Shown in pieces: positions 3,393-37,186 of a stretch of DNA of 64,000 nucleotides. How positions within the stretch are numbered: position 1 is the stretch's first letter; each line of letters starts with the position of its first letter. The DNA is from Ignisphaera sp. GTDB lineage: Archaea; Thermoproteota; Thermoprotei_A; Sulfolobales; Ignisphaeraceae. The stretch covers positions 1 to 64,000 of the forward strand of contig JAWBDT010000006.1 of NCBI GenBank assembly GCA_038821645.1, given 5' to 3'. The position numbers and the translations under genes are program-made. The notes beneath the pieces were generated by a model. It was not told the DNA's origin. It saw only the letters and a list, made by a program, of their open reading frames with translations, and ran no database searches.

Positions 3393-4334
3393 TTATATAC
3401 TGTATTCACAAACTCTATATATCTTCTCTCTATAGCTATAGAATTCGATAACTATCTTGTTTTTTGATAAAAGAAGAGCTTCATCTAAAGCATTCCAGAG
3501 ATCTTCAATTGTCTTTATCTTGAAATTATCTATAGCTACTAATATATCTCCTACACTTATTCCACAGATAGATGAGAGTTTATTGTTGAATATACTGGAT
3601 ACTACAATTCCTTCAATTCTTTCTTTAGATCTAAGTCCATACTCAATAACCCTTATACCCAACTTAATATGGTTTACATATCCATATTTTTTGAGTATAT
3701 TGTAGCTATAGTGAATCCTTCTAGAGGGAACTATTAATGTGAATTCATGGGTATTGAATGCATTACCAACTATTATACCTACTGCTTTTCCATAGATATC
3801 TATTAAGGGACCTCCGCTCATCCCTGGTACTACTGGTGTACTAGCTGTTAATAGACCCTCGATATATTCATTACCTATAGATGCATTTATCTTGTGTCCA
3901 CTTATTATTCCTAAAGAGAAGAATGGTCTTAGAAGTCCAAGAGGCATACCACATGCTAGAACAATACTCCCTATAGGTGGTTCTTCTAGCTCTAGAGAAA
4001 TTGGATTCAAAGCTTTATCACTTTCTATGAACATTAAATCCCATCTATTATCGATACCCTTTACTCTACCTTCAGAAGATTCACCATTGGCATCGATAAC
4101 ACATATACTGTCCTTTGGCTCTATATGTGCTACAGAAACAACAGTACCTCTATCTATAGCGAAACCTGTAGCAAAATGTTCAAACTCATGCTCATCTCTA
4201 CATGAAGAGTTGCGAGGCACAGAAACTATATAGAGAGAATTCAGTGTTTTAGAAATTATAGACACAATCCATTTATTCAGTACCTGGGCTACATCACCCT
4301 TAAACAAGTCATTTACTGCATCTTTACTGTTCAT
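3393..4334 (-). CDS. HtrA/DegP-like trypsin-family serine protease with PDZ domain
   Basis: Triad VAH / WDL / PGMSGGP; C-terminal GISVGDILVAID PDZ motif. Confidence 0.85.
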   Translation of the reverse strand: MNSKDAVNDLFKGDVAQVLNKWIVSIISKTLNSLYIVSVPRNSSCRDEHEFEHFATGFAIDRGTVVSVAHIEPKDSICVIDANGESSEGRVKGIDNRWDLMFIESDKALNPISLELEEPPIGSIVLACGMPLGLLRPFFSLGIISGHKINASIGNEYIEGLLTASTPVVPGMSGGPLIDIYGKAVGIIVGNAFNTHEFTLIVPSRRIHYSYNILKKYGYVNHIKLGIRVIEYGLRSKERIEGIVVSSIFNNKLSSICGISVGDILVAIDNFKIKTIEDLWNALDEALLLSKNKIVIEFYSYREKIYRVCEYSI

Positions 4335-4439
4335 ATGATATCCCTTATCCTACATACAGTATTTGACGTAAAGGTTATTTTGAGTAAATCACCTTATCAA
4401 GTAGTAAAAAGAAGAAGATAGTTTTCATGGCGAAGCACG

Positions 4440-4721
4440 ATGATGTGTTTAAAAATATACATTAAAGGTGTTGTAAAAGGGGTAGGATATCTAGCTTACA
4501 TCTATATACAGGCCGAAAGACTTAGTATAAAAGGGTATGCTCGTTACTTTAGCGATGATATTGTAGAGGTTGTGGCTATAGGTAGTGAAGATACTGTAAG
4601 CAGATTTGTAGATAGATTGAGATTTCACGACACTATGGCCATAGTAAACAATATCGAGATTAACAAGTGTAGCGATATTGCATTAACTAATGTAGAGAGT
4701 TTTGAGATATACTTTAGCTAG
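4440..4721 (+). CDS. Acylphosphatase-fold protein, catalytic Arg and Asn replaced
   Basis: GVVKGVGYL...KGYARYF..D.VEV aligns with the consensus GxVQGVGFR...GxVRN. Confidence 0.75.
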   Translation: MMCLKIYIKGVVKGVGYLAYIYIQAERLSIKGYARYFSDDIVEVVAIGSEDTVSRFVDRLRFHDTMAIVNNIEINKCSDIALTNVESFEIYFS

Positions 4722-5101
4722 AGTTTTTCGAGAATAGATCTGATTATCGAATCATGTTCAGCATACTTCTTTAGCACTACATAAGCTTTATCAGAAGCAA
4801 TAAGTTTTCCATTTTCTTCTTTGACCAAGTTCATGAGCTTCAACATATTCACATCAAGTAGTATTTCTTTTGAAACACCTACTCCATACCTATTTCCATT
4901 TACTTGGTATCCTGTATCGATACCGTGTTTATGTAGATACGATAAATAGGATGCAACATCTTTAATTGTTAGACCATCTCTACTTTTAGCTATTATAGCT
5001 AAGATGATCATCTGGGGAGGGGTTTTGTGATACAAGGTCATCTCCAAGGTTGTACTAAGATGATAATACCATATAACTACTGAGACCAACATATAGTCCA
5101 T
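4718..5101 (-). CDS. Hypothetical winged-helix-like protein
   Basis: IILAII..RDGLTIKDV...LVKEENGKLIASDKA wHTH-like pattern; start may be near 5042. Confidence 0.5.
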   Translation of the reverse strand: MDYMLVSVVIWYYHLSTTLEMTLYHKTPPQMIILAIIAKSRDGLTIKDVASYLSYLHKHGIDTGYQVNGNRYGVGVSKEILLDVNMLKLMNLVKEENGKLIASDKAYVVLKKYAEHDSIIRSILEKL

Positions 5102-5130
5102 ATATTAATGGTCTCTATCTTTAAGTAAAT

Positions 5131-5319
5131 TTAGTAACATTTTGCTGAACTTTCAGGAAAAAGCTTCTTTACTATATCTCGGTTTCTATAGATATCAGCA
5201 ACAAATTTTATGGCATTACATACGTCTTCTGTACCTTTCTTGTTCTTCACTATAATATTAAGAAAGACTTTATAGCCAGGTGCAATTCTATCGAGTTTCT
5301 CTTCATCCATTATTCTCAA
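5131..5319 (-). CDS. Small hypothetical protein
   Basis: 62-aa ORF with normal composition, co-oriented with 4718..5101. Confidence 0.45.
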   Translation of the reverse strand: MRIMDEEKLDRIAPGYKVFLNIIVKNKKGTEDVCNAIKFVADIYRNRDIVKKLFPESSAKCY

Positions 5320-5573
5320 TGTAATCAGCCTTTTAAATTATTACCAGCATTAAGTATTATCTTTTGAGGTTTAGGCGACTAACAATCATATGTGAATAAT
5401 ACAATTTAGTTCGCAGTAGCCACTCAATCTCTATTTATACCTTTAGCAATTAATTAGAGTAAACATTGAATGTGAGATACATATTATGTAAACACAAGAC
5501 TTGTGAAAGCTTCAGAATCTGGAGTACACTAGTAAATTGTAGTTTCACAATATTGTTTCAGAGAATCTACTTC

Positions 5574-5987
5574 CTATTCTCTATATGCTATAACATCGAT
5601 TTCCACCTTTACACCCCGAGGTAATGCTGATACTTGTACCGTTGTTCTAGCTGGTGGCTTTTCATCAAAGTAGAGACTGTAGATAGTGTTAAAGTCCTGA
5701 AGATCATTTAAATCGGTTAAGTATACCGTAACCTTGACCACATCCTTAAGCGAATAATTGCATGCTTCAAGTATCGACTTTATATTTTCAAGAACTCTTC
5801 GTGTTTGATCCTTTATATCTCCTTCAATAATACGACCTGTGGAAGGCTCTATAGGTATTTGACCTGAAATAAATAGCCATGGTCCTATCTTTACTGCTTG
5901 TGAATAAGGTCCTATAGGTTTTGGTGCTTTATCTGTGTAGATAATCTCTTTAGCCATAGTCAGCACCTCGATAAGATTTCTACTCAT
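5574..5987 (-). CDS. ridA: RidA/YjgF family enamine deaminase
   Basis: GPYSQAV, SGQIP, PPART and VEID motifs; real start probably MAKEII near 5957. Confidence 0.92.
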
Positions 5988-6194
5988 CTCTAATACAATC
6001 CATAAGATATAAATGCCTATCTGTAGCCATTTTTATGTCATCATTGTGTATTTTCTGTTCATCAAAACTATGTATCATTATGTTGACGCTTTATTAGAAT
6101 AATGTTTAATAGGTTATAGTGATAGATGTATGATGCTATCGAGTCTTAAATATCTCTATAGCGGTTTCAAAAGCGTTGAGTTGAGGGAATATCA

Positions 6195-30981: not shown

Positions 30982-31860
30982 ATGTTTAGATACTCATTTG
31001 AGCAAAAGATATTTGAAATAAAGGGTTTAAAGATAGGGGGACAACCGGGGGAGAATCCACCTATACTAATAGGATCTATATTCTATCATAAACATAAAAT
31101 TGTTGAAGACGAGAAAAAGGGGATATTCAATAAATCAGAAGCTGAAGCTCTTATAAAGAAGGTAGAGGAGTTATCAGATAAAACCAAGATACCGTATATG
31201 TTCGACGTAGTTGGAAGTACTGCTGAAGCTATAGTTAAGTATATAGATTTTGTTGCAACTGTAACACAAGCCCCAATACTAGTTGATGCTTTAAGCGATA
31301 TAGCTGTAGCTACAGCTGCACTAAAACATGTTAAAGAAGTTGGTCTAACTGATAGAGCTATATATAACTCTTTAACGGCTAAATCAAAAGATGAAGAATA
31401 CAAAATTATTCAAGAAAATGGTATTGATAAAGCTGTACTACTGCTCTATACAGATAAAGTCCTAGATGTTGAAGCAAGGCTGAAGAGCCTTGAAATAATG
31501 CTTGAGAAAACCAAAATCTATGGTATTAGCAAACTTCTTGTAGATACTTTTGTCATAGATATACCTACTCTATCAATAGCTATGAAAACAGGCATAGAGG
31601 TTAAGAGAAGATATGGACTACCTTTTGGATGTGGTGCACATAATGCTATATCGGCGCAGAGAAAATCATTTAAAGAGAGATTCGGTAGTGAAGGAGTTAA
31701 GGTGTGTGAGCTTGCATCTAATCTTGCAACAATTGTTGTAGGAGCAGACTTCCTACTCTATGGACCTATCGAAGCAGCTCTCGATATCTTTCCATCAGTC
31801 TACACCATATATACTTCCTATAGATATCTAAAGCGAATGAATCAAACAATACAGATATAG
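30982..31860 (+). CDS. MtrH-like pterin methyltransferase, stand-alone
   Basis: IGGQPGENP..IGSIFY, YNSL, GCGAHN and GADFLLYGPIE signatures. Confidence 0.88.
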   Translation: MFRYSFEQKIFEIKGLKIGGQPGENPPILIGSIFYHKHKIVEDEKKGIFNKSEAEALIKKVEELSDKTKIPYMFDVVGSTAEAIVKYIDFVATVTQAPILVDALSDIAVATAALKHVKEVGLTDRAIYNSLTAKSKDEEYKIIQENGIDKAVLLLYTDKVLDVEARLKSLEIMLEKTKIYGISKLLVDTFVIDIPTLSIAMKTGIEVKRRYGLPFGCGAHNAISAQRKSFKERFGSEGVKVCELASNLATIVVGADFLLYGPIEAALDIFPSVYTIYTSYRYLKRMNQTIQI

Positions 31861-31915
31861 ACTGTTTTCCAATCTGCAGATCGTTCTCTCTAGCCAAATA
31901 AATGATTAATGGACT

Positions 31916-32839
31916 TTACATCAAGATATTTTGTTCCAATAAGTCTATGTATCTAAAGATTGAATCAACAATAAGCGTAACTATAGTTGATCTAGGTTTT
32001 AGCTCTTTTGATATCTTTAATGCACCAACAATATTTGCTCCCGAGGATATTCCACCCAAGATTCCTTCATCTCTAACTAACCTCAATGACATATCTAGTG
32101 CTTCGGAATAAGAAACTTCTATAACCCTGTCTATGATGCTTCTATCTAGTAGCGGTGCTATATCTTTGTGTAGAAGTCCCTCTATTCTATCTATACCGGG
32201 CCCTCCAGCAAGTTTTGATCCTTTTGGAGTAACTGCAACAACTACTACATTCCTATTTCTCTCTTTAAGATATCTACCAACACCTGTAATCGTTCCTCCT
32301 GTACCAACACCCATAACGAAACAATCTATAGATCCGTTCAACTGATTCCATATCTCAACAGCTGTAGTTTCATAGTGTGCTCTAATGTTTGCTGGATTTG
32401 CATACTGATTTAGAAAAACACCACCTCTTTCTTTAGCTATATCTTCAGCAAGCTTAAGATAATAGTTTGGAGATAATGGATCTTCATCACCAAAAACTAC
32501 TTCAGCGCCCATGAGCTTCAATAAACGTACCTTATTTACACTTGTAGCTTTAGGAACTACGATAATAGGGATTAGACCAAATCTTTTAGCTATAAAGGTT
32601 ACAGATATAGCTGTATTACCGCTAGAAGCTTCAACCACAATATCTCCTTCTTTGAGACCATACTTTTCTATAGCACTCTTAACCATATATAGAGCGATTC
32701 TATCTTTATGACTACCAGTAGGATTAAAGTATTCAAGTTTAACCAATAGTCTACAGTTGTTAAAGGGCCTAATTCTAGTGAGCTCAAGTATGGGTGTATT
32801 CCCTATAAATTTCGTTATATCGGTAACACTCATTGTCAC
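31916..32839 (-). CDS. cysK: Cysteine synthase/cystathionine beta-synthase family PLP enzyme
   Basis: NPTGSHKDR, SSGNT, GVGTGGT and GISSGA motifs. Confidence 0.88.
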   Translation of the reverse strand: MTMSVTDITKFIGNTPILELTRIRPFNNCRLLVKLEYFNPTGSHKDRIALYMVKSAIEKYGLKEGDIVVEASSGNTAISVTFIAKRFGLIPIIVVPKATSVNKVRLLKLMGAEVVFGDEDPLSPNYYLKLAEDIAKERGGVFLNQYANPANIRAHYETTAVEIWNQLNGSIDCFVMGVGTGGTITGVGRYLKERNRNVVVVAVTPKGSKLAGGPGIDRIEGLLHKDIAPLLDRSIIDRVIEVSYSEALDMSLRLVRDEGILGGISSGANIVGALKISKELKPRSTIVTLIVDSIFRYIDLLEQNILM

Positions 32840-33126
32840 AACCCTATGTCATGTATTTAGCCTATACCTTATAAAAAGCTAAACAAAATTAAGAATTTGA
32901 TCAAAGATCATCAATGTTAAGCAGATTGTACAGAATATTGATGTAGGTAAAAAATGATAATTTATGTTCAATTCCCTGGCTATACTTCTCAGCTAACTTA
33001 ATCCAAGTAGTGCTGGATCTATGCCTAAGCTTTGGGCAAGTGCTTTGTACTCATCAAGAGACATGACTACTACTTGGTGCCTCGCGCAACTGTTTCGGGT
33101 TTCTTATAGGTTTATATTGGGTGATT

Positions 33127-33285
33127 TTATTCTTCTGCTATGATTAGCACATATACTTCTTTTCCGTGGAGGTGCTTGATCTTTTCTTTGTCTTTCCCCA
33201 GTGGGTAGAGTACTGGTGCACCGTATCTGTACCTTATAACACTACACTTAACGAAGTAGAACTTATCAGCCAATCTATCACCCAT
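33127..33285 (-). CDS. Small 52-aa transposon-associated protein (AbrB/DUF2080-like), not in the ORF track
   Basis: MGDRLADKFYFVKCSVIRYRYGAPVLYPLGKDKEKIKHLHGKEVYVLIIAEE; GGTGA RBS before alternative TTG at 33273; TATA at 33307-33313. Confidence 0.6.
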   Translation of the reverse strand: MGDRLADKFYFVKCSVIRYRYGAPVLYPLGKDKEKIKHLHGKEVYVLIIAEE

Positions 33286-33350
33286 AAGTAAAACTGATAG
33301 AAAGCCTTATAAACCCTTATGTCTATGCTGAGTAGTGGTGGAGCTTCTCG

Positions 33351-34574
33351 ATGAGGGAGGAAGAGCTTGTTGAAACACTTAAGATGAAGGCTCTCCCCAA
33401 GGGTAGTGATGATCGTGATGCTCTGGTTGAGTTTCTGAAGCTCTATCGTGATGCTCTTCAACTAGTAGTAAACAGGTTGTGGAGTTTAAACAAGGTGTCT
33501 TCAATTAAAACTCTGCACAGAATGTTCTACAATGAGCTGAGAAAGCATGGTTTTAGAGCACACCACGTAAAGCAGATCTACGTCTACGCTAAAGCAGTTG
33601 CTAGAGCTAGTAAGCAGAACGGTGGTAGAAAACCGGTTCTAAGGAGATTGACAGCTAGGATAGACAAGTACGACTATAAGCTGGATCTAGAGAGTAGAAC
33701 GCTTATCCTAAAGATACATGAAAACAGAGAGGTTAAGCTAAGACTATTGACATCTAATGAAAGAGTAGAGAAGTTTAGGGGTTGGAGTAACTATGAGCTA
33801 GCTGTGAAGGTTGTTGAAGACGAGGTCTATGTAGCAGTATACTTTAGGAAAACAGTTGAACCAAGAGAAACTAGAACCGTTATGACTGTTGACGTGAACT
33901 TCGACAATATTACGCTAGCTGTGTTTACACCTAGTGGAGAGTTGTTGAAGCTGAAGCGATTCAAGACACTACTCAGAAAGATACTGACGCACAGGATATG
34001 GATCGAGAAGATTCAGAGAAAGTACTCAAAGTCATGGAGATTCATCAGAAGTGTTAGAAGAGTGATTAAAAGACATGGAGAGAGAATAAGGAGTATTGCT
34101 TGGGACTATGCTCACAAGATTGGAGACTCTATAGCGGAACTTGCTAGTAGGTATAGCTCTATCATAGTCTTAGAGAACTTGAATAAACTCAGGAGTAACG
34201 TGAATAGAGGTAGCAATTTCAACAAGAAGCTATCCCTGTGGTTCTATAGAAAGATGCAGTTCACTATAAGCTACGAGGCTTTAGAAAGAGGACTAGAGAC
34301 TAGATACGTCAACCCAGTAAAGACATCATCAACTTGTCCAAGATGTGGAAACAAACTCGAGAGCAACGGTAATAGAGTAATGCGATGCACTAGATGTGGA
34401 TTCATAGGAGATAGAGACGTGATTGCATGCATAAACTTATTTCTAAGGTACTCAAGATGTGGGGGTCTAGGGGTACCCCTAAACGCCCCCAAGCCCGATG
34501 AAAACCCGAGCGGAATGCGGGGGAACAGAGATGAGGCAATGAAATCAACCAATATAAACCTACATCAGAGCTGA
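33351..34574 (+). CDS. tnpB: TnpB RNA-guided nuclease
   Basis: RuvC D (VDVNF), E (LENL) and D (DRD); zinc finger CPRC/CTRC. Confidence 0.95.
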   Translation: MREEELVETLKMKALPKGSDDRDALVEFLKLYRDALQLVVNRLWSLNKVSSIKTLHRMFYNELRKHGFRAHHVKQIYVYAKAVARASKQNGGRKPVLRRLTARIDKYDYKLDLESRTLILKIHENREVKLRLLTSNERVEKFRGWSNYELAVKVVEDEVYVAVYFRKTVEPRETRTVMTVDVNFDNITLAVFTPSGELLKLKRFKTLLRKILTHRIWIEKIQRKYSKSWRFIRSVRRVIKRHGERIRSIAWDYAHKIGDSIAELASRYSSIIVLENLNKLRSNVNRGSNFNKKLSLWFYRKMQFTISYEALERGLETRYVNPVKTSSTCPRCGNKLESNGNRVMRCTRCGFIGDRDVIACINLFLRYSRCGGLGVPLNAPKPDENPSGMRGNRDEAMKSTNINLHQS

Positions 34575-34595
34575 ACCCCGCTATAGCTCAAATGG
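34455..34595 (+). ncRNA. Putative TnpB omega RNA (reRNA) overlapping the tnpB 3' end
   Basis: GC-rich hairpin GGGGGTC-TAGGGGTACCCCTA-AACGCCCCC at 34461-34490; position typical of TnpB omega RNAs; boundaries inferred. Confidence 0.6.
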
Positions 34596-35653
34596 TTCTA
34601 ATAGCTAGAGCTCTTCACTTTAATGCAAAACTCATAGCTTTTGATGAACCTACATCAGCTCTAGGACCTGTTGAAGTTGAAAAACTTCTGAACATCATGG
34701 TTAAACTGAAGAACGTAGGCATATCTATGATATTCGTTAGTCATAAAATAGAGGAGGTCATGAAAGTAGCAGATCGAATATATGTTATGAGAGATGGCCA
34801 TATAGTTGCAGAATTCACTAGAGATTCATTCAATTTGAATGAGATTATAAGAGCTATGATAGCTAGAGAAATAAAGGAATTCTTCCCAAAAGAAGAGATA
34901 AGTATAGGTCCTTCAATTCTAGAGGTTAAAAACTTGTCAGATAGCTATGGTTTCATAAAGAATGTGTCTTTTACTGTTCGAAAAGGAGAAATTTTAGGAA
35001 TTTATGGAATTGTTGGTTCTGGTAGAAGTGAAATGATATTGACGTTGCTGGGCTATAGGCCCAGAAGTGAAGGAGAGATTTATATAGATGGTAGAAGAGT
35101 AGAAATAAATAAGCCTTCTGATGCATTTATGTATTGTTTAGCATATCTCCCCGAAGACTGGAGGCTTTCTCTAGTGTACCTAATGTCGGTAAAAGATAAC
35201 ATAACTCTTCCAATAATAAATAAAATGAAACGTGTAGAGATTGGGTTAATATCGCCAATAAAGTTATCTGAAGAACTAGAGATAGCACATAACTATATCG
35301 AGAAACTGAAGATAACTCCGCGAGATCCCTTCAGAAGAGCAATGTTCTTGAGCGGTGGTAATAGACAAAAGGTTGCATTAGCTAAACTATTGGCATCAAA
35401 TGCAAAAGTATTGATACTTGATGAGCCAACACATGGTGTAGATGTAGGAACTAAAGTAGAGATTAGAAAACTCATTGTGGAATTGGCTAAAGAGGGAAAA
35501 GGAATAGTGTTAATATCATCAGAACTTCCAGAGATAACAAATATGTGTGATAGAGTTCTTGTAATGAAGAGAGGTACTATTGTAGCTCAATTCGAACGCA
35601 AAGAAGTTTCAGAAGATAAAATAGTTAAGGCAGCTGTATTGGAGAGTGCTTAG
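34577..35653 (+). pseudogene. 5'-truncated two-NBD sugar ABC transporter ATPase (RbsA/MglA-like)
   Basis: Begins inside NBD1 (PAIAQMVLIARAL...FDEPT) without the first Walker A; NBD2 LSGGNRQK/LDEPT intact. Confidence 0.8.
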
Positions 35654-35842
35654 TTTTCTACGTAGTACCATCGTATAAAGTTAGAAAGATTTCTAAAGGC
35701 TATGTCGTTGATTAGCAAATTAACTAACATATTCAATAAACAGAGCTCTATGACTATCGCCAAATCTCTGACAGCTTCAAATTTTCAACTCTATAATTTA
35801 GATTATCATTAAGATACATTAAGTAGATAGAATCTTTATGGT

Positions 35843-37186
35843 TTAACCATGGATATTGTGTCTATATAGTGTTTGTTTCTTCAGATTATTAATGAAGTTA
35901 CCTAGATTCTCAAATGTTTCTTTTGAGATTAGTGAGCTGTTTTCAAGAAGTATTGAGAGAACTTTTCTTAATGCTCTCTTCATATTTCTCTCCTTCAATA
36001 TCTTTGTAAGCTCTTCTACCGAGATATCTACATGTTCTTTGTGTTCGCTAAGTACTTTAACTATTTTCCAAGCAAAACTATGTGCATCATGTATATCAAT
36101 GCTACTAAGTATTGATGAAAATTCATCTATGTAATTCTTCATCTTAATCACAGCCTTAGCTGCATTATCGTCAATTATTTCTATAAGTTTATCTGTAATG
36201 TTTTCTGTTATAAGTAATGCTGCTGATTTCGCATCATATAGGTACTTTACATACATAGCTTCTGGATAAACCTCTGATTCTAGCTCAATCACCATGGGGT
36301 TTTCTGGATCTTCTGTAGCTATGTAGGCAAAATATGATCTTGTTTCAACTCTTTTTAAAACCTCTTCATAGAGCGTGTTTAGAGGTTTAGGCTCTATATA
36401 TTCTGGAGATCTATATGGTATAAGTCTAGATGTTTCACTCCATGTATAGAGCCTGCCGTTTGGATCTCTAGCCATCAGTATATAGAGCTTGTATCTTCTG
36501 TAGTCTTCTCCCAACGGATAGGGAGGTTTTGTTATTGCTGGCTCTGGACCTTCCAACACAAATGTAAAGGTCCATCCCCTGAATCTGTCTAGAGATTTAT
36601 AGACATTCTCTTCCTGAGCTATTCTATCAGCTACATATACATAGGGATTAGCTATAGAGTCTATAGACTCTATAACAAGTCTGCCTCTCTCAAAATACAT
36701 GTTATGAAGAACATACCGTGTAGCAAAGATCCATCTATTCATTACCGGATTGAAATAAGCTGTAACTTGCCATCCATCAACTCTCCTAGTTACTTCTACA
36801 GGTAGTCTATCGCAATACTCATCTTGAGGTACCCCAGGTGATTTAGCGTAACTTAAGGCTTTAGGAATTGGATAAGCAAGCACCTCTTTAGGTTCATTAT
36901 CGCTAAAGAGTATCACAGTACCATAGAGATGCAGAGTGAGTGGAAATACCTTAAACGGTGTCTTCTGATTCCATGAATATATGCATATAGAGTTACCATC
37001 AACCTTAGTGCATCTCTTCTCTACATATCTATTGAATAATTGTTCATACCTACTGAAAATAACATCGAGTTTCTTAGTTGGTTGACCTAAGATCCATCCA
37101 ATGAACCTAATCTCATCTTCAGAAGGCTCATATTTCTCATATTTAACTCTATAGATGAATTTCTCGACAATAAAAACCCTATTCAT
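35843..37186 (-). CDS. T4 RNA ligase 1-like nucleotidyltransferase-fold protein with degenerate active site
   Basis: AYPIPKALSY, RRVDG (motif I, K to R), WIFATR and TFTFVL. Confidence 0.6.
   Translation of the reverse strand: MNRVFIVEKFIYRVKYEKYEPSEDEIRFIGWILGQPTKKLDVIFSRYEQLFNRYVEKRCTKVDGNSICIYSWNQKTPFKVFPLTLHLYGTVILFSDNEPKEVLAYPIPKALSYAKSPGVPQDEYCDRLPVEVTRRVDGWQVTAYFNPVMNRWIFATRYVLHNMYFERGRLVIESIDSIANPYVYVADRIAQEENVYKSLDRFRGWTFTFVLEGPEPAITKPPYPLGEDYRRYKLYILMARDPNGRLYTWSETSRLIPYRSPEYIEPKPLNTLYEEVLKRVETRSYFAYIATEDPENPMVIELESEVYPEAMYVKYLYDAKSAALLITENITDKLIEIIDDNAAKAVIKMKNYIDEFSSILSSIDIHDAHSFAWKIVKVLSEHKEHVDISVEELTKILKERNMKRALRKVLSILLENSSLISKETFENLGNFINNLKKQTLYRHNIHG

Follow-up and report, generated by a model that had tools for sequence, protein, structure and literature searches.

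A 1498-bp insertion element carrying tnpB, the gene of an RNA-guided endonuclease, occupies positions 33082-34579 of the window, the 64,000-nucleotide stretch of Ignisphaera sp. DNA analyzed here (contig JAWBDT010000006.1 of assembly GCA_038821645.1). This element is very probably a derivative of an IS607-family insertion sequence that has no transposase gene (tnpA) and retains an intact module of TnpB and guide RNA, and its mobilization is likely to occur in trans. A sequence-only reading of the window had left two possibilities, a non-autonomous IS607-like element or a new type with terminal inverted repeats (TIRs). The first is supported, in that the ends are homologous to those flanking IS607-family serine transposase genes and the junctions are IS607-like. 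The 21-bp inverted repeat near the tips is the normal subterminal repeat of the IS607 family, not a novel transposon end, and no new transposon class is needed because the ends of this family are built with subterminal inverted repeats. Three features go beyond the known picture: a conserved small gene, here called orfS, a C-rich predicted target-adjacent motif (TAM), and miniature elements that bear a promoter and the guide-RNA template.

The host genome is 1.57 Mb in size, has a G+C content of 35% and is 97.8% complete; the window is its contig C6. The sequencing runs that contain the stretch are labelled hot springs metagenome, consistent with the thermophilic host that had been thought probable. 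Distribution of the element was assessed in 61 related genomes, 27 of which contained matches, and the named relatives with the same element are metagenome-assembled genomes titled Ignisphaera, Desulfurococcaceae, Sulfolobales and similar. The comparison genome G004 belongs to the same genus and is 96-99.6% identical to the window in the flanks of the insertion site. The features of the element and its surroundings are listed in Table 1.

Table 1. Coordinates of the element, its parts and the genes that it interrupts or borders
Feature	Position in window	Strand	Evidence or remark
Target remainder GGTGCC	33076-33081	.	Six bases of the original ABC ATPase target
GCC, conserved target-adjacent motif and predicted TAM	33079-33081	.	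Left-junction comparison
CC, proposed crossover dinucleotide on the left	33080-33081	.	Junction comparison
Left end (LE)	33082-33137	+	Blocks AACTGTTT, GGGTTTC, AGGTTTAT and GGTGAT; conservation begins abruptly across 46 distinct left ends; a serine TnpA presumably binds here
Left arm of the 21-bp inverted repeat (subterminal), TAGGTTTATATTGGGTGATTT	33107-33127	+	Sequence comparison; single-base mismatch with the right arm
orfS, conserved 52-aa gene of no known family, divergent from tnpB	33127-33285	-	Conservation; codon-position differences
orfS-tnpB intergenic region	33286-33350	.	TTATAAA at 33307-33313
tnpB, intact gene of a 407-aa RNA-guided endonuclease	33351-34574	+	NF040570, PF07282
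Guide-RNA (omega RNA) scaffold template, overlapping the 3' end of tnpB	34450-34579	+	Retained in miniatures; covariation
Right arm of the inverted repeat	34542-34562	+	Inside the scaffold and the 3' end of tnpB
Right-end tip GAACCCC	34573-34579	+	CC at 34578-34579 is the proposed crossover dinucleotide
Flanking target, predicted to be read through as guide (GCTATAGCTCAAATGGTTCT)	34580-34599	+	Directly 3' of the scaffold
ABC transporter ATPase gene (sugar type), 3' two-thirds, interrupted by the insertion	34580-35653	+	PF00005; full-length gene intact in G004
Substrate-binding-protein gene, 3' remnant	32993-33075	-	Junction 33075/33076 marks a deletion beside the left end

Element boundaries and inverted repeat

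Three full copies of the element were found in this genome, on contigs C6 (100% identity), C5 (90%) and C10 (78%), along with fragments. The tnpB gene is interrupted by two stop codons in the C5 copy and is intact in the C10 copy. When the copies were aligned together with their flanks, similarity extended from GCCT (33079-33082) to exactly after GAGCTGAACCCC (34579). Full-length matches in the related genomes had the same limits, covering positions 9-10 to 1510 of the query 33070-34590, which corresponds to 33078/9-34579 of the window. GCC directly preceded the element in 33 of 34 distinct left junctions (29 in register and 4 shifted by 1-2 nt), and the remaining junction had ACC. When 46 left ends were aligned by their conserved core, the three bases before the element were G in 36, C in 44 and C in 40, and the preceding position carried no information. 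On the right, 51 of 59 distinct ends stopped at GAACCCC and were followed by unrelated flanks.

Defining the ends from empty sites, as had been suggested, proved feasible with G004, in which the corresponding target is unoccupied. The empty site reads ...ATAGGTGCC/GCTATAGC (in longer form ...AAAGATATAGGTGCC/GCTATAGCTCAAATGG, the slash marking the junction) and lies inside an intact ABC-transporter ATPase gene. The equivalent in the window is GGTGCC[element]GCTATAGC, with the left junction ACTACTT/GGTGCC/TCGCGCAACTG and the right junction ...GAGCTGAACCCC/GCTATAGCTCAAATGG; alignment to G004 resumes at 34578. Because the empty site retains GGTGCC, the GCC belongs to the target and the element starts at the T at 33082. 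The conversion of the clean empty site GGTG-CC-GCTATAG to the filled site GGTG-CC-[T...AACC-CC]-GCTATAG shows the same CC in three places, namely the left junction, the right tip and the unoccupied target; the comparison of the window with G004 revealed no target duplication. The insertion is recent, because it is absent from G004 despite the near identity of the flanks.

The 21-bp inverted repeat noticed earlier is real. The left arm matches the reverse complement of the right arm at 20 of 21 positions, and the 21-mer has just two matches in the window at three or fewer mismatches, as compared to a chance expectation of 0.01, with none of 100 shuffled sequences giving two or more. Ungapped extension lengthened the repeat to 38 nt at 79% (33094-33131 and 34538-34575), and the sequence common to the two ends is in inverted, not direct, orientation. 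The repeat is present in all three full copies, and the true ends lie outside it, 25 nt beyond the left arm and 17 nt beyond the right arm. The arms are therefore subterminal, because conservation among the copies runs past them to 33082 and 34579, so the element is not bounded by the repeats as had been stated.

Relationship to the IS607 family

The absence of tnpA from the element was confirmed: no Resolvase or Y1 match was found within it, and no remnant was detected when three TnpA proteins were compared by tblastn with 33061-33420 (best E 0.37). From relatives, 30 serine-recombinase loci were fetched. Four of these (L096, L099, L087/L101 and L090/L102) have a sequence resembling the LE (75-85% over the first 38-53 nt) about 70 nt upstream of tnpA, as does a fifth locus, L139, and GCC precedes the left end in all five. 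TnpA of L102, the only one of the five scored on the model NF033518 ("IS607 family transposase", cut-off 110), reached 228.6 bits and shares 78% identity with TnpA of L101. On the right, L101 and L102 are organized like the element under study, with ATCAA..AATATAAA..CC.. followed by ..GAACCCC or ..AAACCCC and then the flank, and they terminate ...ATCAATTAATATAAAGCCCTATGAAACCCGAACCCC and ...CTATGAAACCCAAACCCC. The studied element thus has ends homologous to those of elements with a gene for an IS607-type serine transposase.

The construction of the ends also agrees with that family. The ends of IS607-family elements have imperfect subterminal inverted repeats at unequal distances from the tips, short repeated motifs, and GG at the termini and in the unoccupied target without target duplication, as described in the available part of Chen et al. 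2018 (PMC6188088). The element in the window has imperfect subterminal repeats at unequal distances (25 and 17 nt, the 38-nt extension being 79% complementary), short motifs in the ends (GGGTTTC and AGGTTTA, read by eye), and the same dinucleotide at both junctions and in the target of the clean empty site, without duplication. These properties, together with tnpB and a right-end scaffold ending in the core dinucleotide, are shared with IS607, IS1535, ISC1926 and CboIStron. Among the differences, the studied element has no serine-recombinase TnpA or remnant of one, and orfS sits in the place of tnpA; because tnpA is lacking, the element was classified as a non-autonomous derivative and not as an autonomous IS607 member.

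Several observations weigh against an IS607 origin. None of 49 loci encoding relatives of the studied TnpB has an intact tnpA in front; two have only N-terminal tnpA remnants, and in one a tnpA belongs to a neighboring element. The TnpBs of the autonomous elements with these ends are only 25-28% identical to the studied TnpB, so the link to IS607 rests on approximately 40-55 nt per end. The sole serine transposase of this genome (C5:17207-17860) is 37% identical to the TnpAs found beside these ends, and at least five related genomes with at least six element matches have no Resolvase match (G003, G004, G011, G014 and G016). For IS607 only GG has been reported as a requirement, which is less specific than the CC with a conserved preceding G seen here. 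A second empty site, that of the C10 copy, fits less cleanly than the first: G004 has CAC/GTT/TAC where this genome has CAC-ACC[element]TAC, in flanks that are only 91-93% identical.

The C10 copy is also the sole left junction with ACC (L003 1497-1499 and 2988, compared with G004:C3:128951-128953, L159). The three bases ACC and GTT differ at all three positions, amid flanks of 91-93% identity, and the junction may reflect either an off-target insertion or a later change. A search of the genus yielded no further orthologous empty sites; the left flank of the C10 copy belongs to a multi-copy gene family.

Among the 27 related genomes with the element, 18 have Resolvase matches, as do 14 of the 34 without it. 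This co-occurrence is only a weak hint, because the genomes are kin. At L138 (330-1260) and L133 (2260-2450), decayed relatives of the element have lost all of a serine TnpA except its N-terminal DNA-binding part, which precedes a TnpB 52% and 40% identical, respectively, to the studied one, the L133 remnant being an open 57-aa reading frame with the helix-turn-helix only. These remnants show a stepwise loss of tnpA within this TnpB clade.

The only serine recombinase of this genome is followed by a TnpB 28-31% identical to the studied one (C5:17207-19127). This is the one autonomous-looking IS607-type element of the genome (L008 1321-3241), with a 217-aa serine TnpA (213.3 bits on NF033518) overlapping a 436-aa TnpB; the C5 copy of the studied element is about 4 kb away. 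No close relatives of this autonomous-looking element were present among the fetched loci, and the corresponding site in G004 is too diverged for the junctions to be placed.

TnpB and the guide-RNA scaffold

The TnpB protein matched NF040570 at 104.8 bits (cut-off 100) and PF07282, the TnpB zinc-ribbon, at E 8e-17. The RuvC residues D181, E275 and D356, which had been read as intact, do not vary across an alignment of 22 TnpBs, some with as little as 30% identity to the studied one, and neither do the four zinc-finger cysteines C329, C332, C346 and C349. With the D-E-D triad, the zinc finger, a model score above the cut-off and a structured 3' RNA, the gene has the characteristics of an RNA-guided TnpB (OMEGA) nuclease. 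The NCBIfam models for IS200-type and IS607-type TnpB scored 40.2 and 34.9 bits, both far under their cut-offs, so the protein does not decide between these two types.

The last ~130 nt of the element (34450-34579) recur in the related genomes far more often than the remainder, and this segment is predicted to encode the guide-RNA scaffold, with a structured core at 34460-34522. In 52 distinct right ends, 17 predicted base pairs were 96.4% paired, and nine of the pairs had changed on both sides in a compensatory manner. None of 500 shuffles reached the covariation score, and sliding the partners by 1-3 columns reduced pairing to 32-57%. A search of Rfam with 33000-34700 at E ≤ 1 gave only a chance microRNA match (E 0.21) and neither a RAGATH-type nor any other family. 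The right arm of the repeat is within the unpaired 3' part of the scaffold, and because of this location the same bases would act in both molecules, as a site for protein binding in the DNA and as a segment of the guide-RNA scaffold.

In an IStron, the serine TnpA excises a double-stranded circle, the TAM of TnpB is the same as the TnpA target (TGGG), and the scaffold ends in the core dinucleotide, according to the available part of the preprint (10.1101/2023.11.20.567912). By analogy with that system, the 20 nt of flank directly 3' of the scaffold are predicted to be read as guide. On the tnpB strand the dinucleotide is CC, from which a TAM of 5'-GCC and a scaffold end of ...ACCCC are predicted. 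This differs from the CboIStron as described in the same source, with CC on the tnpB strand and a GCC motif here and the G-rich TGGG there.

The proposed life cycle of the element is as follows. A serine TnpA provided in trans would bind the short motifs that compose the 21-bp repeat, which are found in two copies in the left end and in inverted orientation in the right end. It would then pair the ends and excise a double-stranded circle by exchange across the CC/GG dinucleotide, and the circle would insert at a (G)CC target. TnpB, with the scaffold and a flank-derived guide of approximately 16-20 nt, would cut donor sites left empty and flanked by GCC, after which homologous recombination would restore the element. 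For a hot-spring archaeal TnpB, the exact ends of the element, a prediction of a C-rich TAM (5'-GCC) and the limit of the scaffold are now available, and all of these are directly testable.

Miniature elements

Many of the matches in relatives that covered 130 bp of the right end proved to be miniature elements of 250-285 bp with both ends. They consist of the left end, a TATA-like box, the first bases of tnpB (ATGAGGG...), a hairpin (GAGAGCC...GGCTCTC), the scaffold and the right end. The TATA-like box is in the same place as TTATAAA of the full element. Of 11 miniatures inspected, nine had GCC and the left-end core, one had the core without GCC, and one had a truncated core. The miniatures have the appearance of self-contained guide-RNA genes, each equipped with a TATA box. 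They resemble miniature inverted-repeat transposable elements and PATE-like elements in being internal-deletion derivatives that keep both ends, and differ from these in keeping the TATA box, the first tnpB bases, a new hairpin and the whole scaffold of 130-165 nt.

One truncated miniature is present in this genome (C8:22-168), as are three elements of ~300 bp with ends of the type seen in the autonomous elements L101 and L102 (C8:166-468, covered by L007; C8:16488-16775; C5:63030-63320). The left end of this second miniature family is like that of the studied element, and the right end, ...CATGAAACCCAAAC(T/A)CC, is like that of L101 and L102. A search with the TnpB of the window found no TnpB of the L101/L102 type in this genome. 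The element at C8:166-468 abuts the truncated miniature of the first type exactly after a GCC.

The small divergent gene orfS

The 270 bp between the left end and tnpB, which had been passed over earlier, are occupied by orfS, whose stop codon (33127-33129) touches the inner edge of the left repeat arm. The gene was found in 25 of 28 distinct left-end regions of copies that have only tnpB, some of them only 66-68% identical in DNA. Pairwise differences at codon positions 1, 2 and 3 numbered 2172, 1686 and 4528, and in 23 copies there was no in-frame stop codon, as compared to 35-120 in the other five frames. The TTATAAA motif in the orfS-tnpB intergenic region is ~25 nt from the start of orfS and ~40 nt from the start of tnpB, and TTATAA is retained in the 78%-identical copy amid diverged surroundings. 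It is likely to be an archaeal TATA box shared by the two genes.

A profile search with orfS recovered 229 protein clusters, in which every named cluster was hypothetical and no Pfam domain was present. According to the record names, the clusters come from Desulfurococcaceae, Sulfolobales, Ignisphaera, Nezhaarchaeales, Thermofilaceae and Verstraetearchaeota, and 20 of 401 sampled genomes of the phylum had matches. At 24 of 30 fetched orfS loci there was an adjacent divergent tnpB, and at none of the 30 was there a tnpA. The TnpBs beside orfS are 28-100% identical to the studied TnpB or to that of the C10 copy, whichever is closer. A whole clade of elements without tnpA therefore carries a conserved small gene beside tnpB. 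In two such distant orfS-tnpB elements, L201 (1470-2975) and L187 (reverse) of genome G015, TnpB is 33-35% identical to that of the C10 copy. Their inverted repeat of 30 nt reaches the tip on the left and lies ~28 nt inside the right end, which again terminates at CCGAACCC(C).

The AlphaFold model of the protein (pLDDT 80) has a strand-strand-helix-strand arrangement. Searches for a family gave no match in NCBIfam and, for member 1, none in Pfam at E ≤ 10; across 24 members, one had any Pfam match (E 0.31). The best hit of a sequence profile against the PDB was an unrelated exotoxin (E 0.1). Foldseek found nothing in the PDB at E ≤ 0.001, a wide VIA fold search gave a best Z of 3.0, and the ESM Atlas returned only unnamed clusters of 47-48 aa. 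A presumed likeness of orfS to the AbrB/SpoVT swapped hairpin was supported by none of the tools. No published account of orfS or of the miniatures was found in a limited literature search of titles and text passages.

As a guess, orfS is a clade-specific accessory gene whose small product binds nucleic acid and regulates either the shared promoter or TnpB. A bolder proposal, tentative and rather doubtful, is that orfS encodes an undescribed partner of TnpB, 47-52 aa in length, which replaces tnpA beside one deep archaeal TnpB clade and may control or assist the nuclease or the guide-RNA module, for instance through repression of the shared promoter, through gating of TnpB in the manner of an antitoxin, or through marking of the left end. 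This branch of IS607 descendants would then persist and spread mainly via guide-RNA-directed homing, and the stand-alone guide-RNA miniatures would use TnpB in trans instead of depending on a transposase. An action of the orfS protein on TnpB or the element ends, if real, would bring a third participant into the scheme of transposase, nuclease and guide RNA.

Alternative explanations

The conserved association of orfS and tnpB raises an alternative that we consider improbable, namely that in this genome the element has in effect ceased to be a transposon and the two form a resident gene pair, for example toxin-antitoxin-like or regulatory, whose ends are relics and which spreads only by DNA exchange and TnpB-driven homing. 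The pair is kept across TnpBs down to 28-38% identity, with tnpB at most and tnpA at none of the orfS loci, the genome has no cognate TnpA, and its three copies are old (78-90% identity). There is also a precedent, described in the available part of Altae-Tran et al. 2023 (PMC10691335), in which a TnpB is constantly associated with a very small gene in Thermoproteota and other archaea. These RHH/MazE-TnpB pairs are non-mobile, have a small AbrB/MazE or RHH gene upstream and co-oriented, and have the RuvC-III Asp replaced, and the archaeal pair was proposed to be a toxin-antitoxin module of TnpB and a small DNA-binding protein. The pair in the window, in contrast, is inside a multi-copy mobile element with defined ends, its genes are divergent, D356 is invariant in a canonical RuvC domain, and orfS matches no family, with no Pfam match for member 1; membership in the RHH/MazE-TnpB module was rejected on these grounds. 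A resident pair also fits poorly with ends that are conserved as sharply as the genes and with the recent insertion relative to G004. The numerous miniatures in relatives, which keep only the ends, promoter and scaffold, argue for mobility that depends on the ends, as does contig depth across both element ends in three hot-spring DNA runs, which is ~5-60 times that of the flanks. In the same runs contigs break at 33075 and at 34578-34579.

A very improbable alternative is that the element belongs to the IS200/IS605 family as an IS1341-type element with tnpB only, in which case a Y1 (HUH) TnpA would move it as single-stranded DNA, GCC would be the left cleavage motif, and the inverted repeat would be incidental. 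A short conserved GCC immediately 5' of the left end and the lack of target duplication would fit that family as well, and the TnpB model scores do not favor either type. The solo tnpB elements of Sulfolobus islandicus are similar in having a single tnpB between the ends, several copies, and a host among the thermophilic Thermoproteota, and one characterized archaeal TnpB, SisTnpB1, is active at 37-85 C (10.1101/2023.03.06.531077, available part). However, the ends of those elements are hairpins and their TAMs are AT-rich (TTTAA in SisTnpB1), whereas the studied element has inverted subterminal repeats and GCC. Folding of both ends on both strands gave no hairpin better than shuffled sequences (four folds, z -0.17 to 0.28), so hairpin ends of the IS200/IS605 kind are excluded. 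The Y1 transposase family (PF01797) had no matches in this 97.8% complete genome, while a control search detected it in 6 of 14 well-known genomes. The absence of Y1 and of subterminal palindromes led to rejection of IS200/IS605 membership, and the sharing of sequence between the ends in inverted orientation, as well as the occurrence of the same ends around serine-recombinase genes in relatives, also argues against it.

The new TIR-type element of the earlier reading, in which a DDE-type or other transposase would use the 21-bp repeats as terminal inverted repeats, is scarcely credible: the repeat is long, far above chance and present in all copies, but conservation reaches 25 and 17 nt past the arms to sharp, unequal boundaries, the empty site is clean with no fixed-length target duplication (classical TIR membership was rejected for this reason and because the repeats do not reach the tips), subterminal unequal repeats are published for IS607 (PMC6188088, available part), and the only transposase gene found beside these ends in the examined loci is an IS607-type tnpA.

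Target gene, adjacent deletion and neighboring genes

A deletion is present beside the element. Window positions 31500-33075 correspond to G004rc 101-1677 and 34578-36246 to G004rc 4333-6001, and 2655 bp of G004 (L071, G004:C2:67000-73000) are absent to the left of the GGTGCC that precedes the element. In G004 the deleted stretch covers the greater part of a gene for a substrate-binding protein, a permease gene and the ATPase gene up to codon ~180. Only the six target bases GGTGCC are left between the deletion junction 33075/33076 and the element, and no microhomology was visible at this junction. Some metagenome contigs end at 33075, and one contig from an RNA library continues there with undeleted sequence; because contigs of both kinds occur, both the deleted and the undeleted alleles exist. 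Contigs of that one RNA-library run cover parts of the element, and such contigs reveal neither transcription, strand nor ends. A scan for sigma-70 promoters gave 2 sites, as compared to 2.9 expected, and is uninformative as the host is archaeal.

At the site of the C5 copy, G004 carries 2.6 kb of other DNA (C3:163262-165877, L155/L156) that starts with an inverted right-end fragment, an arrangement that may have arisen by inversion or replacement between element copies. The genes neighboring the element in the window, both on the minus strand, are a pyridoxal phosphate-dependent enzyme at 31916-32839 (PF00291, E 1e-75) and a 447-aa open reading frame without a Pfam match at 35843-37186.

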